Assembly: GCF_003790525.1 (NCBI RefSeq)
Contig: NZ_CP033635.1
Origin: Escherichia coli
GTDB taxonomy: Bacteria; Pseudomonadota; Gammaproteobacteria; Enterobacterales; Enterobacteriaceae
DNA: 64,000 bases
Strand: one strand, 5' to 3'
In this document: piece by piece, positions 13,684-20,973 of the stretch
Layout of the letters: each line of letters opens with the position of its first letter
Position numbering within the stretch: the stretch's first letter is position 1
The notes under the pieces: generated by a model
Database searches by the model: none
The model's input: only the letters and a program-made list of their open reading frames with translations
Told to the model about the DNA's origin: nothing
Program-made: the position numbers and the translations under genes

Positions 13684-14110
13684 TCAAATTCTCCCGTCAT
13701 TATCACCTCTGCTACTTAAATTTCCCGCTTTATAAGCCGATTAAATGATGAATAAACGCCCCTGTTAATGAATATCTGGCATGTTGTACTAAAAATCGAT
13801 GTTTTGCTTTGACAATCCCCTGGTGTTTTGCGAAAACATTCTAGGAAGAAAAAAAACAGTATTCTTATATGCGCATAATCATGCATGTAAATACCATGTT
13901 TACCGTGCTAGTGAAATCTACGTATGGCGTGGACAGACGCCATTCGTGATGTCGATAGCTGCCACAAGGCAACGGTCTTCTCACCGTAGACCCAGGCATT
14001 GCGCGCCGTGAATCTTCATGATTTCGGTCTATCGTGACGGGTAGCGACTCTGAACAGTGATGTTTCAGGGTCAGACAGGAGTAGGGAAGGAATACAGAGA
14101 GACAATAATA

Positions 14111-14605
14111 ATGGTAGATAGCAAGAAGCGCCCTGGCAAAGATCTCGACCGTATCGATCGTAACATTCTTAATGAGTTGCAAAAGGATGGGCGTATTTCT
14201 AACGTCGAGCTTTCTAAACGTGTGGGACTTTCCCCAACGCCGTGCCTTGAGCGTGTGCGTCGGCTGGAAAGACAAGGGTTTATTCAGGGCTATACGGCGC
14301 TGCTGAACCCCCATTATCTGGATGCATCACTTCTGGTATTCGTTGAGATTACTCTGAATCGTGGCGCACCGGATGTGTTTGAACAATTCAATACCGCTGT
14401 ACAAAAACTTGAAGAAATTCAGGAGTGTCATTTAGTGTCCGGTGATTTCGACTACCTGTTGAAAACACGCGTGCCGGATATGTCAGCTTACCGTAAGTTG
14501 CTGGGGGAAACCCTGCTGCGTCTGCCTGGCGTCAATGACACACGGACATACGTTGTTATGGAAGAAGTCAAGCAGAGTAATCGTCTGGTTATTAAGACGC
14601 GCTAA
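14111..14605 (+). CDS. lrp: Leucine-responsive regulatory protein
   Basis: MVDSKKRPGKDLDRIDRNILNELQKDGRISNVELSKRVGLSPTPC...; internal start of the track ORF. Confidence 0.95.
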   Translation: MVDSKKRPGKDLDRIDRNILNELQKDGRISNVELSKRVGLSPTPCLERVRRLERQGFIQGYTALLNPHYLDASLLVFVEITLNRGAPDVFEQFNTAVQKLEEIQECHLVSGDFDYLLKTRVPDMSAYRKLLGETLLRLPGVNDTRTYVVMEEVKQSNRLVIKTR

Positions 14606-14645
14606 CACGGAACAGGTGCAAAATCGGCGTATTTTGATTACACTC

Positions 14646-14661
14646 CTGTTAATCCATACAG
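14646..14661. promoter_or_regulatory. LexA-box-like CTGT-N8-ACAG upstream of ftsK
   Basis: CTGTTAATCCATACAG about 80 bp upstream of the ftsK start. Confidence 0.45.
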
Positions 14662-14739
14662 CAACAGTACTGGGGTAACCTGGTACTGTTGTCCGTTTTA
14701 GCATCGGGCAGGAAAAGCCTGTAACCTGGAGAGCCTTTC

Positions 14740-17700
14740 TTGAGCCAGGAATACACTGAAGACAAAGAAGTCACATTGACAAAGTTAAGTAGCGGCCGCC
14801 GCCTTCTGGAGGCGTTGCTGATCCTTATTGTCCTGTTTGCCGTCTGGTTGATGGCTGCCTTACTAAGCTTTAACCCTTCGGACCCCAGCTGGTCGCAAAC
14901 GGCCTGGCATGAACCTATCCATAATTTAGGTGGGATGCCCGGTGCATGGCTGGCAGATACGCTGTTCTTTATTTTTGGAGTGATGGCTTACACCATTCCC
15001 GTCATTATTGTCGGCGGTTGTTGGTTTGCCTGGCGTCATCAGTCCAGCGACGAATACATTGATTATTTTGCCGTTTCGCTACGCATCATTGGCGTTTTGG
15101 CGCTCATCCTTACCTCCTGTGGTCTGGCGGCAATCAACGCTGACGATATCTGGTATTTTGCCTCCGGTGGCGTCATTGGCAGCTTACTGAGCACTACGCT
15201 ACAACCACTGCTACACAGTAGCGGGGGAACTATTGCACTGCTCTGCGTTTGGGCAGCGGGCCTGACGCTGTTCACCGGTTGGTCATGGGTGACCATTGCT
15301 GAAAAACTCGGCGGCTGGATTTTAAATATTCTTACCTTCGCCAGTAATCGTACCCGTCGCGATGATACCTGGGTCGATGAAGATGAGTATGAAGACGACG
15401 AAGAATATGAAGAAGATGAAAGTCACGGCAAACAGCATGAATCACGCCGTGCCCGTATTCTTCGCGGCGCGCTAGCGCGTCGTAAACGGTTGGCGGAAAA
15501 ATTCATTAATCCGATGGGGCGGCAAACAGACGCTGCGTTGTTCTCCGGTAAGCGGATGGATGATGACGAAGAGATTACCTACACTGCACGCGGTGTGGCT
15601 GCCGACCCTGACGACGTCCTCTTTTCGGGCAATCGTGCAACGCAGCCAGAATATGACGAGTACGATCCATTATTAAACGGTGCGCCAATTACCGAACCTG
15701 TTGCTGTAGCAGCTGCTGCTACCACGGCGACACAAAGCTGGGCTGCGCCGGTTGAACCTGTGACTCAGACGCCGCCTGTTGCCTCTGTTGATGTTCCACC
15801 TGCACAACCTACAGTAGCCTGGCAGCCTGTACCGGGGCCACAAACGGGAGAGCCGGTTATTGCTCCTGCACCGGAAGGTTACCCACAGCAGCCACAATAT
15901 GCGCAGCCTGCAGTGCAATATAATGAGCCGCTGCAACAACCAGTACAGCCACAGCAGCCGTATTATGCACCTGCAGCTGAACAATCTGCGCAACAACCTT
16001 ACTACGCTCCTGCGCCGGAACAGTCTGCGCAACAGCCGTATTACGCCCCTGCGCCAGAACAATCGGTGGCAGGTAACGCCTGGCAAGCCGAAGAGCAGCA
16101 ATCCACTTTTGCTCCACAGTCTACATACCAGACGGAGCAAACTTATCAGCAGCCAGCCGCTCAGGAGCCGTTGTACCAACAGCCGCAACCCGTTGAACAG
16201 CAGCCTGTTGTGGAGCCTGAACCCGTTGTAGAAGAGACAAAACCCGCGCGTCCGCCGCTTTACTATTTTGAAGAAGTGGAAGAGAAGCGTGCCCGTGAAC
16301 GTGAACAACTTGCGGCCTGGTATCAACCGATTCCAGAACCTGTTAAAGAACCAGAACCGATCAAATCTTCGCTAAAAGCACCTTCTGTTGCAGCAGTACC
16401 TCCAGTGGAAGCCGCTGCCGCCGTTTCTCCGCTGGCATCTGGCGTGAAAAAAGCGACACTGGCGACGGGGGCTGCCGCAACCGTTGCCGCGCCAGTCTTC
16501 AGTCTGGCAAATAGCGGTGGACCGCGTCCACAGGTCAAAGAGGGGATTGGCCCCCAGTTGCCACGACCGAAACGCATCCGCGTGCCAACTCGTCGTGAAC
16601 TGGCGTCTTACGGTATTAAGCTGCCCTCACAGCGTGCGGCAGAAGAAAAAGCCCGTGAAGCCCAGCGCAATCAGTATGATTCTGGCGATCAGTATAACGA
16701 TGATGAAATCGATGCGATGCAGCAGGATGAACTGGCGCGTCAATTCGCCCAGACACAGCAGCAACGCTACGGCGAACAGTATCAACATGATGTGCCCGTG
16801 AACGCAGAAGATGCAGATGCTGCGGCAGAGGCTGAACTGGCTCGTCAGTTTGCTCAAACTCAACAACAACGTTATTCCGGCGAACAACCGGCTGGGGCGA
16901 ATCCGTTCACTCTGGATGATTTTGAATTTTCGCCAATGAAAGCGTTGCTGGATGATGGTCCACACGAACCGCTGTTTACGCCAATTGTTGAACCTGTACA
17001 GCAGCCGCAACAACCGATTGCACCGCAGCAACAGTATCAGCAGCCGCAGCAACCAGTTGCGCCGCAGCCGCAGTATCAGCAGCCGCAACAGCCGGTTGCA
17101 CCGCAGCAGCAATATCAGCAGCCGCAACAGCCGGTTGCACCACAGCCGCAATATCAGCAGCCGCAACAGCCAGTTGCGCCGCAGCCGCAGTATCAGCAGC
17201 CACAACAACCGGTTGCGCCGCAGCAGCAATATCAGCAGCCACAACAGCCAGTTGCGCCGCAGCCGCAGTATCAGCAGCCACAACAGCCAGTTGCGCCACA
17301 GCCGCAGGATACCCTGCTTCATCCGCTGTTGATGCGTAATGGCGACAGCCGTCCGTTGCATAAACCGACGACGCCGCTGCCTTCTCTGGATTTGTTGACG
17401 CCGCCGCCGAGCGAAGTGGAGCCGGTAGATACCTTTGCGCTTGAACAAATGGCGCGTCTGGTGGAAGCGCGTCTGGCTGATTTCCGTATTAAAGCCGATG
17501 TCGTCAATTACTCTCCGGGGCCAGTTATCACTCGCTTTGAACTTAACCTGGCACCTGGCGTAAAAGCGGCGCGCATTTCTAACTTGTCACGGGACCTTGC
17601 CCGTTCACTTTCGACGGTGGCGGTGCGTGTCGTTGAAGTTATTCCTGGCAAACCCTATGTAGGTCTGGAGTTACCGAATAAAAAACGACAAACCGTTTAT

Positions 17701-18849
17701 CTGCGCGAAGTTTTGGATAACGCCAAATTCCGCGATAATCCGTCGCCATTAACCGTGGTGCTGGGTAAAGATATCGCCGGTGAGCCGGTGGTTGCCGATC
17801 TGGCAAAAATGCCGCACTTGTTGGTTGCGGGGACTACCGGTTCCGGTAAGTCTGTCGGGGTGAACGCGATGATCCTGAGCATGCTTTATAAAGCACAGCC
17901 AGAAGATGTGCGTTTCATCATGATCGACCCGAAAATGCTGGAGCTTTCGGTTTATGAAGGCATTCCGCATCTGTTAACGGAAGTTGTTACTGATATGAAA
18001 GATGCCGCCAACGCGCTGCGCTGGTGTGTTAACGAGATGGAGCGTCGTTATAAACTGATGTCTGCGCTGGGTGTGCGTAATCTGGCGGGTTATAACGAAA
18101 AAATTGCTGAAGCCGATCGCATGATGCGTCCGATTCCAGACCCGTACTGGAAGCCGGGTGACAGTATGGATGCCCAGCATCCGGTGCTGAAAAAAGAACC
18201 GTACATTGTGGTGTTGGTGGACGAATTTGCCGACCTGATGATGACGGTAGGTAAAAAAGTGGAAGAGCTTATAGCACGTCTGGCGCAAAAAGCCCGTGCC
18301 GCGGGTATCCACCTCGTACTGGCAACGCAGCGTCCATCGGTTGATGTTATTACTGGTCTGATTAAAGCGAATATTCCGACCCGTATCGCCTTTACCGTAT
18401 CCAGTAAGATTGACTCACGTACCATTCTTGATCAGGCTGGCGCGGAATCACTGCTGGGTATGGGGGATATGCTTTACTCTGGGCCGAACTCCACGTTGCC
18501 GGTACGTGTTCATGGTGCTTTTGTTCGCGATCAGGAAGTTCATGCCGTGGTGCAGGACTGGAAAGCGCGTGGTCGCCCACAGTATGTTGATGGCATCACC
18601 TCCGACAGTGAAAGCGAAGGTGGCGCGGGCGGTTTCGATGGCGCTGAAGAACTGGATCCGTTGTTCGATCAGGCGGTGCAGTTTGTCACTGAAAAACGCA
18701 AAGCATCAATTTCTGGCGTACAGCGTCAGTTCCGCATTGGTTATAACCGTGCAGCGCGTATTATCGAACAGATGGAAGCGCAGGGGATTGTCAGCGAACA
18801 GGGGCACAACGGTAATCGTGAAGTGCTGGCCCCACCGCCGTTTGACTAA
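14740..18849 (+). CDS. ftsK: DNA translocase FtsK
   Basis: N-terminal membrane domain, Pro/Gln-rich linker, C-terminal motor (GTTGSGKS) and gamma domain; 1369 aa. Confidence 0.95.
16990..17310 (+). repeat. In-frame tandem repeats (about 42 bp) encoding [10 protein letters not shown](P/Q)QYQ in the FtsK linker
   Basis: About eight consecutive near-identical units. Confidence 0.8.
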
Positions 18850-18863
18850 TTAATGCATCGTAT

Positions 18864-18895
18864 GCCGGAAAAGGCGCGGTAGCGTCGCATCCGGC
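18864..18895. repeat. REP-like palindromic element between ftsK and lolA
   Basis: gccggaaaaggcgcggtagcgtcgcatccggc resembles the REP consensus. Confidence 0.5.
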
Positions 18896-19004
18896 ACTCT
18901 ATCAACTGAAAATTCAGTATTTTCTTCTTTCCTCAAGCTGATTATTAGCCTGGAATAGAGAGTAGAGGGAGCTCCCGGTCGGGAGTGACGTAATTTGAGG
19001 AATA

Positions 19005-19619
19005 ATGATGAAAAAAATTGCTATCACCTGTGCATTACTCTCAAGCTTAGTAGCAAGCAGCGTTTGGGCTGATGCCGCAAGCGATCTGAAAAGCCGCCTG
19101 GATAAAGTCAGCAGCTTCCACGCCAGCTTCACACAAAAAGTGACTGACGGTAGCGGCGCGGCGGTGCAGGAAGGTCAGGGCGATCTGTGGGTGAAACGTC
19201 CAAACTTATTCAACTGGCATATGACTCAACCTGACGAAAGCATTCTGGTTTCTGACGGTAAAACACTGTGGTTCTATAACCCGTTCGTTGAGCAAGCTAC
19301 GGCAACCTGGCTGAAAGATGCCACCGGTAATACGCCGTTTATGCTGATTGCCCGCAACCAGTCCAGCGACTGGCAGCAGTACAATATCAAACAGAATGGC
19401 GATGACTTTGTCCTGACGCCGAAAGCCAGCAATGGCAATCTGAAGCAGTTCACCATTAACGTGGGACGTGATGGCACAATCCATCAGTTTAGCGCGGTGG
19501 AGCAGGACGATCAGCGCAGCAGTTATCAGCTGAAATCCCAGCAAAATGGGGCTGTGGATGCAGCGAAATTTACCTTCACCCCGCCGCAAGGCGTCACGGT
19601 AGATGATCAACGTAAGTAG
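19005..19619 (+). CDS. lolA: Outer-membrane lipoprotein carrier LolA
   Basis: [34 protein letters not shown]...; signal peptide. Confidence 0.9.
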
Positions 19620-19629
19620 AGGCACCTGA

Positions 19630-20973
19630 GTGAGCAATCTGTCGCTCGATTTTTCGGATAATACTTTTCAACCTCTGGCCGCGCGTATGCGGCCAGAAAA
19701 TTTAGCACAGTATATCGGCCAGCAACATTTGCTGGCTGCGGGGAAGCCGTTGCCGCGCGCTATCGAAGCCGGGCATTTGCATTCTATGATCCTCTGGGGG
19801 CCGCCGGGTACCGGCAAAACAACCCTCGCTGAAGTGATTGCCCGCTATGCGAACGCTGATGTGGAACGTATTTCTGCCGTCACCTCTGGTGTGAAAGAGA
19901 TTCGCGAGGCGATCGAGCGCGCTCGGCAAAACCGCAATGCAGGTCGCCGCACTATTCTTTTTGTTGACGAAGTTCACCGTTTCAACAAAAGCCAGCAGGA
20001 TGCATTTCTGCCACATATTGAAGACGGCACCATCACTTTTATTGGCGCAACCACTGAAAACCCGTCGTTTGAGCTTAATTCGGCACTGCTTTCCCGTGCC
20101 CGTGTCTATCTGTTGAAATCCCTGAGTACAGAGGATATTGAGCAAGTACTGACTCAGGCGATGGAAGACAAAACCCGTGGCTATGGTGGTCAGGATATTG
20201 TTCTGCCAGATGAAACACGACGCGCCATTGCTGAACTGGTGAATGGCGACGCGCGCCGGGCGTTAAATACGCTGGAAATGATGGCGGATATGGCCGAAGT
20301 CGATGATAGCGGTAAGCGGGTCCTGAAACCTGAATTACTGACCGAAATCGCCGGTGAACGTAGCGCCCGCTTTGATAACAAAGGCGATCGCTTTTACGAT
20401 CTGATTTCCGCATTGCATAAGTCGGTACGTGGTAGCGCACCCGATGCGGCGCTGTACTGGTATGCGCGAATTATTACCGCCGGTGGCGATCCGTTATATG
20501 TTGCGCGTCGTTGCCTGGCAATTGCTTCCGAAGATGTCGGCAATGCCGACCCACGGGCGATGCAGGTGGCAATTGCGGCCTGGGATTGCTTTACTCGCGT
20601 TGGCCCGGCGGAAGGTGAACGCGCCATTGCTCAGGCGATTGTTTACCTGGCCTGCGCGCCAAAAAGCAACGCTGTCTACACCGCGTTTAAAGCCGCGCTG
20701 GCCGATGCTCGCGAACGTCCCGATTATGACGTGCCGGTTCATTTGCGTAATGCGCCGACGAAATTAATGAAGGAAATGGGCTACGGGCAGGAATATCGTT
20801 ACGCTCATGATGAAGCAAACGCTTATGCTGCCGGTGAGGTTTATTTCCCGCCGGAAATAGCACAAACACGCTATTATTTCCCGACAAACAGGGGCCTTGA
20901 AGGCAAGATTGGCGAAAAGCTCGCCTGGCTGGCTGAACAGGATCAAAATAGCCCCATAAAACGCTACCGTTAA
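19630..20973 (+). CDS. rarA: Replication-associated recombination protein RarA (MgsA)
   Basis: AAA+ Walker [10 protein letters not shown], 447 aa; GTG start. Confidence 0.9.

Follow-up and report, generated by a model that had tools for sequence, protein, structure and literature searches.

The ftsK gene in the window, a 64,000-nucleotide stretch of Escherichia coli DNA, contains a protein-coding minisatellite of eight in-frame 39-nt units, hereafter array B, which is the VNTR CVN001 of the Lindstedt generic E. coli/Shigella MLVA scheme (GECM-7, GECM-10) and was already known. The eight-unit array, identical to that of E. coli SMS-3-5, is an ordinary minority allele and not the longest one known. 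Taken together, we consider it very likely that array B is a coding VNTR within a flexible tether, that its units change in number by slippage or unequal recombination, and that the window carries an ordinary allele of CVN001. Reportedly, typing has made routine use of the locus ever since the scheme of Lindstedt et al. (2007).

The host gene encodes a DNA translocase of the FtsK/SpoIIIE family, with the N-terminal four-transmembrane domain, the alpha and motor domains, the gamma domain and the genomic context all in place. All four FtsK domains of Pfam are present in the 1369-aa product (Table 1), the gamma-domain PDB entries 2j5p and 5dcf match residues 1285-1369, and PDB 2ius_A, the crystallised C-terminal construct of the E. 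coli FtsK motor, aligns to residues 858-1369 (E = 0). The open reading frames of the window follow the order lrp-ftsK-lolA-rarA, as in K-12, and the neighbours are annotated in both K-12 and SMS-3-5. At the nucleotide level, the gene is 100% identical to ftsK of SMS-3-5 (NC_010498.1, RefSeq FtsK WP_000077118.1), in which RefSeq annotates the same 4110-nt CDS as DNA translocase FtsK, flanked by lrp and lolA; the identical 4110-nt sequence (100%) is found in 24 complete genomes, that is, SMS-3-5 and 23 others. Array B sits between the FtsK_4TM and FtsK_alpha domains. The earlier note had assigned the repeat to the linker of FtsK, and the RefSeq CDS, the Pfam domains and the position ahead of the alpha domain all bear this out. 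As the array ends at residue 857 and the 2ius construct begins at residue 858, it closes the linker and borders directly on the motor. None of the solved FtsK structures retrieved by sequence search covers residues before 836.

Table 1. Features of ftsK and its product in the window (nucleotide positions are those of the window; residues are those of FtsK).
Feature	Position	Strand	Description
ftsK CDS (DNA translocase FtsK)	14740-18849	+	TTG start; 4110 nt; 1369 aa + stop; from the ORF list
Acidic D/E run	15376-15420	+	15 residues; GAA/GAT/GAG triplets; one Glu codon more than K-12
Array A	15958-16074	+	three in-frame 39-nt units, PYYAPA[A/P]EQSAQQ; last one degenerate; from residue 407
CVN001 forward primer ECMLV4-F	16884-16904	+	exact match; primers from PMC11773471, PMC8143711
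CVN001 forward primer Lindstedt F	16886-16904	+	exact match; primers from PMC11773471, PMC8143711
Array B (VNTR CVN001)	16999-17310	+	eight in-frame 39-nt units, QQPQQP[V/I]APQ[P/Q]Q[Y/D]; residues 754-857
C-terminal motor (alpha, beta, gamma)	17311-18846	+	2ius_A alignment and Pfam; directly 3' of array B
CVN001 reverse primer ECMLV4-R	17378-17399	-	1 mismatch
CVN001 reverse primer Lindstedt R	17389-17408	-	2 mismatches
FtsK_4TM (PF13491)	residues 20-191		Pfam, E = 5.4e-42; N-terminal membrane domain
FtsK_alpha (PF17854)	residues 880-980		Pfam, E = 1.1e-29
FtsK_SpoIIIE (PF01580)	residues 988-1201		Pfam, E = 9e-88; RecA-like P-loop motor
FtsK_gamma (PF09397)	residues 1304-1364		Pfam, E = 2.6e-28; KOPS/XerD-interacting winged-helix

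Tandem Repeats Finder reports array B at 16999-17307 with a period of 39, 7.9 copies, 89% matches, no indels and a score of 450, while a 117-nt super-period scores 506. Split in frame, it resolves into exactly 8 × 39 nt of 13 residues each, so that the eight in-frame Q/P-rich units described previously are all there, with the unit corrected from about 14 to 13 aa (39 nt) and the start of the array from 16990 to 16999. The order is that of a first 13-residue unit, followed by six units in which a ten-residue stretch is completed by (P/Q)QY, and a last unit that ends in D. The periodicity is far above chance, with a lag-39 self-identity of 0.894 compared to 0.50 ± 0.027 (maximum 0.593) in codon-preserving shuffles and 0.285 ± 0.026 in base shuffles. 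At the DNA level, no two units are identical, and between 1 and 9 bases differ from one unit to another. Pairwise comparison of the eight units yields 97 synonymous and 29 non-synonymous codon differences, the latter restricted to three positions, namely V/I at position 7, P/Q at position 11 and the terminal Y/D.

The K-12 MG1655 gene measures 3990 nt and encodes 1329 aa, which is the length against which the 1369 aa of the window had been set in the earlier note. Aligned to each other, the two proteins are 99% identical and differ by three gaps that add up to 40 extra residues in the window: 26 aa correspond to two units of array B (8 vs 6), 13 aa to one unit of array A (3 vs 2), and one is a Glu in the acidic run, at alignment column 224. 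The proposal that the repeat is what makes this FtsK longer thus stands for 26 of the 40 residues, about two thirds of the difference, and falls short for the 13 contributed by array A and the single Glu. Array A, which Tandem Repeats Finder places at 15958-16064 (period 39, 2.7 copies), is itself variable: in a sample of 60 genomes, forms with 2, 3 and 4 units make up about one third each, and one genome has a single unit, shares that are subject to the excess of some clones among RefSeq complete genomes. In the acidic run, the same program finds a period of 9 at 15389-15420.

That array B is CVN001 follows from the published primers for this locus, which bracket it. One source lists "CNV001 (ftsK)" together with its primers (PMC11773471), and another provides the Lindstedt primers, with alleles sized as (PS-250)/39 (PMC8143711). 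From the window, the Lindstedt pair is predicted to amplify 523 bp, and (523-250)/39 = 7.0 makes this MLVA allele 7; from K-12, it would amplify 445 bp, or allele 5. With 8 units for allele 7 in the window and 6 units for allele 5 in K-12, the MLVA number equals the unit count minus one, and allele 7 corresponds to 8 units once the last, D-ending unit is counted. Among Swedish ESBL-producing isolates, allele 4 was found in 1%, allele 5 in 40%, allele 6 in 40%, allele 7 in 13% and allele 8 in 5% (PMC5217547), frequencies that agree with those of our genome samples after the one-unit offset. While the published range is 4-8, genome sampling adds alleles as short as 1 unit and as long as 11, and fragment sizing would round any allele that includes a truncated 15-nt unit.

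The genome samples were two systematic sets of 60 records each, taken in even steps down a ranking of 5,426 complete E. coli genomes; the number of units was read from the match span, and odd cases were verified on the sequence. Eight units were found in 6 genomes of the first sample and 5 of the second, seven in 25 and 28, six in 21 and 19, and another or undetermined number in 8 and 8, so that whole-unit alleles of 6, 7 or 8 account for 104 of the 120 genomes. Expressed as shares, and bearing in mind that some clones are over-represented among the complete genomes in RefSeq, this amounts to about 9% with 8 units, 44% with 7 and 33% with 6, or 77% with either 6 or 7. Stabilising selection on length, as opposed to drift, could be what keeps most genomes at 6-7 units, or else this clustering could stem from the clonal over-representation in RefSeq.

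The earlier note had also held the repeat to be likely strain-variable and had suggested a comparison of linker lengths across strains, and both samples confirm that the number of units varies. Among complete E. coli genomes, the extremes are 1 and 11 units, corresponding to FtsK proteins of 1264 and 1407 aa. A single unit is found in strains 25403 and 298 only (FtsK of 1264 aa), 9 units in Z1323HEC0010 and STEC367 (1381 aa), and 11 units in E70 (1407 aa), and several alleles include a truncated 15-nt unit, QQPQY. Against this range, to speak of an "expansion" in the window was an overstatement, as 8 units occur in about 9% of the sampled genomes and alleles of 9 and 11 units exist. The idea of a special expansion was to be given up if reference strains had the same count, and they do: E. 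coli 042 has 8 units (FtsK of 1368 aa), and so has SMS-3-5, whose genome is a RefSeq reference genome.

Alleles of the same size are not necessarily alike. Four 8-unit alleles (SMS-3-5, 042/B1.H1.1, 02B17CRGN002 and SC477) consist of different DNA unit strings, from which we conclude that this size arose more than once; that of 02B17CRGN002 resembles a K-12-type allele with two single-unit gains. As alleles of the same size arose independently, equal length does not equate to identity, which limits what MLVA fragment sizing can resolve. The unit number shifts through replication slippage or unequal recombination between adjacent units, and several alleles carry the traces of such events. Closest to SMS-3-5 is strain 500010, with 7 units; one of them matches SMS-3-5 unit 1 in its 5' part and unit 2 in its 3' part, a hybrid left behind by an in-register deletion through slippage or unequal exchange. 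EFF60 has SMS-3-5 units 0, 1, 2 and 5 in common and is without units 3 and 4, and in the 11 units of E70 the duplication of a 5-unit block is visible. Because 39 nt are 13 codons (13 × 3), the gain or loss of a unit never breaks the frame, and ftsK is open in all alleles examined, with proteins of 1264-1407 aa. A role as a phase-variable or contingency locus was considered and rejected, since the unit is a multiple of 3 and every allele is in frame.

The array is not confined to E. coli. A degenerate pattern covering ten codons of the unit was run against species-representative genomes, one for each species, and multiple matches spaced by 39 nt were found only in Escherichia, Salmonella enterica subsp. 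arizonae and Citrobacter. The Escherichia members are E. coli, E. whittamii and a cryptic lineage, and those of Citrobacter are C. amalonaticus, C. sedlakii and a MAG; in FtsK of E. whittamii, the cryptic Escherichia lineage, S. enterica subsp. arizonae, C. amalonaticus and C. sedlakii, the array occupies the same position as in E. coli, with HEPLFTP before it and L(L/I) plus a further 13-residue segment after it, and comprises about 4-9 units. The units have a flavour that depends on the lineage: in C. sedlakii they all end in QQH(Y/F), and the cryptic Escherichia has units of the QPPQQP kind. They appear to be homogenised within lineages, as in concerted evolution. Judging by its distribution, the array appears to be older than the split of Escherichia, Salmonella and Citrobacter. 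The pattern was also matched singly in unrelated phyla (Streptomyces, Bifidobacterium and various MAGs), without periodic multiple hits at 39 nt, and these matches are probably due to chance or to unrelated Pro/Gln-rich proteins.

In Salmonella, the 39-bp ftsK repeat is known as STTR7/SENTR2 (PMC2430564), and a 195-bp in-frame deletion (5 × 39) has been described in S. Typhimurium in what the authors call "the variable PQ repeat region" of ftsK (PMC8627665). STTR7/SENTR2 is an orthologous array with the same 39-bp period, and the genome of S. enterica subsp. arizonae has a 13-residue unit of the same family at the same position in the FtsK linker as E. coli. The differences lie in the genus, in the typical counts (9.3 in S. 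Enteritidis NCTC 13349) and in the flanks, which read PGVMPES... before the array and ...SLIHPLL after it. The tolA VNTR (CVN004 in E. coli, SENTR1 in Salmonella), which we set beside ftsK by description, is one of the other coding VNTRs in envelope or division proteins and likewise a strain-variable, in-frame, low-complexity repeat in the long linker of a protein that is otherwise conserved, and it too serves as a typing marker; it lies in another gene, has units of 15 or 45 bp and encodes a different peptide.

As for the role of the array, residues 201-870, which make up the linker, contain 17% Gln and 15% Pro, and the Pro/Gln-rich nature of the FtsK linker is textbook material. A review (PMC5357621) describes this linker as unstructured and puts it at about 650 aa in E. 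coli; its length differs from species to species, being far shorter in Vibrio and Pseudomonas, and it is unconserved outside close relatives. The same review reports that the linker helps to position the motor, that mutants in it filament (citing Bigot et al. 2004) and that some of its segments contact FtsQ, FtsL, FtsI and FtsZ (citing Dubarry et al. 2010). Array B is most likely part of a flexible, disordered tether between the N-terminal membrane domain, anchored at the septum, and the motor, and each unit lengthens the ~650-aa linker by 13 residues. We infer that differences of one or two units are near-neutral and that the exact number matters little. In favour of this speaks the existence of natural E. 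coli isolates with anything from 1 to 11 units, and in S. Enteritidis an ftsK allele swap between two strains, involving an 84-bp repeat indel, left survival in egg white, the one phenotype tested, unchanged (PMC6137255).

The sequence of the peptide itself may nevertheless matter, as suggested by the excess of synonymous differences and by the maintenance of the motif in three genera. Taken further, this leads to a different explanation, in which the units are functional docking motifs, perhaps of the polyproline-II type, that bind a divisome protein or help the motor to assemble, and their number tunes valency and is under selection. We regard it as very unlikely. The 97 synonymous against 29 non-synonymous codon differences would fit such a constraint, yet gene conversion combined with a narrow repertoire of Gln, Pro and Ala codons can give the same excess; the 13-residue motif is kept in Escherichia, Salmonella and Citrobacter, and interactions of the linker with FtsQ, FtsL, FtsI and FtsZ are reported, whereas the linker as a whole is unconserved beyond close relatives and far shorter in Vibrio and Pseudomonas (PMC5357621). 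Similarly, the concentration of unit numbers at 6-7 is set against viable clinical isolates with a single unit and others with 11, and against the Salmonella allele swap, for which no phenotype was detected (PMC6137255). A related idea is that the number of units in both linker arrays is a selected and quickly adjustable setting of tether reach or valency. The clustering at 6-7 units, the fact that the same sizes were reached several times independently, and the strong conservation of the unit peptide in three genera hint at it, and we would give it a very small chance of being correct.

Short reads can lead to the mis-assembly of a tandem array of 312 nt, but that the count results from a repeat mis-expanded in sequencing or assembly is next to impossible: the identical ftsK recurs in 24 complete genomes, each sequenced independently, whose sources are humans, chickens, dogs, river water and a pangolin; other lineages, including the reference strain 042, carry different 8-unit alleles; PCR fragment sizing in MLVA independently puts 13% of isolates at this allele size (PMC5217547); and the lack of any two DNA-identical units makes an assembly collapse or expansion less likely. 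A role of the repeat DNA on the opposite strand or as a structured RNA is just as improbable. The long minus-strand frame that spans array B (273 aa, 16627-17448) has a monotonous Leu/Arg-rich translation without a Pfam family and is what one would expect to arise from a CAG/CCG-rich repeat that lacks stop codons in its complementary frames; RefSeq annotates only ftsK at the locus, and no Rfam family was matched on either strand of 14000-19700.

We also considered a second genomic locus, perhaps the QQP repeats of TraD, which had been suggested by a median of 2 places per genome and by plasmid hits in searches with the array. This candidate was discarded: the records behind the plasmid hits bear ftsK itself, being either pieces of chromosome or megabase entries with a plasmid label, and with a one-unit query the number of places per genome goes down to 1, the extra places probably being off-register self-alignments of array B.

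As an ordinary coding VNTR with a known polymorphism (PMC11773471, PMC8143711, PMC5217547), array B has little discovery value in itself; its meaning is mostly practical. Length differences between E. coli FtsK proteins, which span 1264-1407 aa, are not to be taken as annotation errors or as functional divergence, and short-read assemblies may mis-size the region of the array. Should the number of units be a selected setting after all, the tether would tune the coupling between constriction and chromosome clearance across lineages or growth regimes. In either case, the natural series from 1 to 11 units provides ready material for testing the effect of linker length.

The linker of FtsK carries a second 39-nt in-frame repeat, which we call array A and which is separate from, and independent of, the CVN001 array. 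In a sample of 60 complete genomes, forms with 2, 3 and 4 units of array A each account for roughly one third of the genomes, and a single unit is found in one strain, SW07164, a degree of polymorphism similar to that of the CVN001 array. Array A was not found among the named typing loci in the literature searched for ftsK together with VNTR or MLVA.

Repeats and other sequence features of the FtsK linker in the window
Feature	Position	Description
Acidic run, 15 residues	15376-15420	GAA/GAT/GAG triplets
Array A, 39-nt in-frame repeat	15958-16074	3 units, PYYAPA[A/P]EQ[S/P]AQQ
Duplicated 14-aa segment, near-exact	16729-16875	residues 664-677 and 699-712

At the acidic run, the window has one Glu more than K-12, making this a third, small in-frame length polymorphism of ftsK. 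For some strains, the difference from the window over ftsK adds up to 42 nt, that is, 39 + 3. The two copies of the duplicated 14-aa segment lie at a spacing of 35 aa, and K-12 also has both. The start codon of ftsK is TTG, at 14740, a position on which the K-12 and SMS-3-5 annotations agree; for lrp, upstream of ftsK, the mechanical ORF list extends the frame to a GTG at 14057 (182 aa), whereas the annotated CDS is 495 nt.

The longest CVN001 allele among those examined is that of strain E70 (NZ_CM173937.1), with 11 units and an FtsK of 1407 aa; it is the product of the duplication of a 5-unit (195-nt) block, not of single-unit steps. The shortest has one unit and an FtsK of 1264 aa, and is found in only two of the 5,426 complete genomes, those of the clinical isolates 25403 (NZ_CP195555.1; from urine, Alexandria, Egypt) and 298 (NZ_CP195565.1), which may have a study or a clone in common, because their accession numbers are near each other. 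This allele is a natural near-deletion of the CVN001 array that is apparently compatible with viability. The array also matches 11 records of the plasmid collection (H161-H171), which range from 70 kb to 4.9 Mb, carry chromosomal ftsK, and are apparently fragments of chromosomes, or entire chromosomes, that were labelled as plasmids.

Not all CVN001 units are complete: a truncated unit of 15 nt, encoding QQPQY, which corresponds to the in-frame loss of 24 nt within a unit, is present in the alleles of four matched records (L002-L004 and L007) and also in IHE3034 (H222). MLVA based on fragment size would round alleles with this 15-nt unit to the wrong whole-unit allele.
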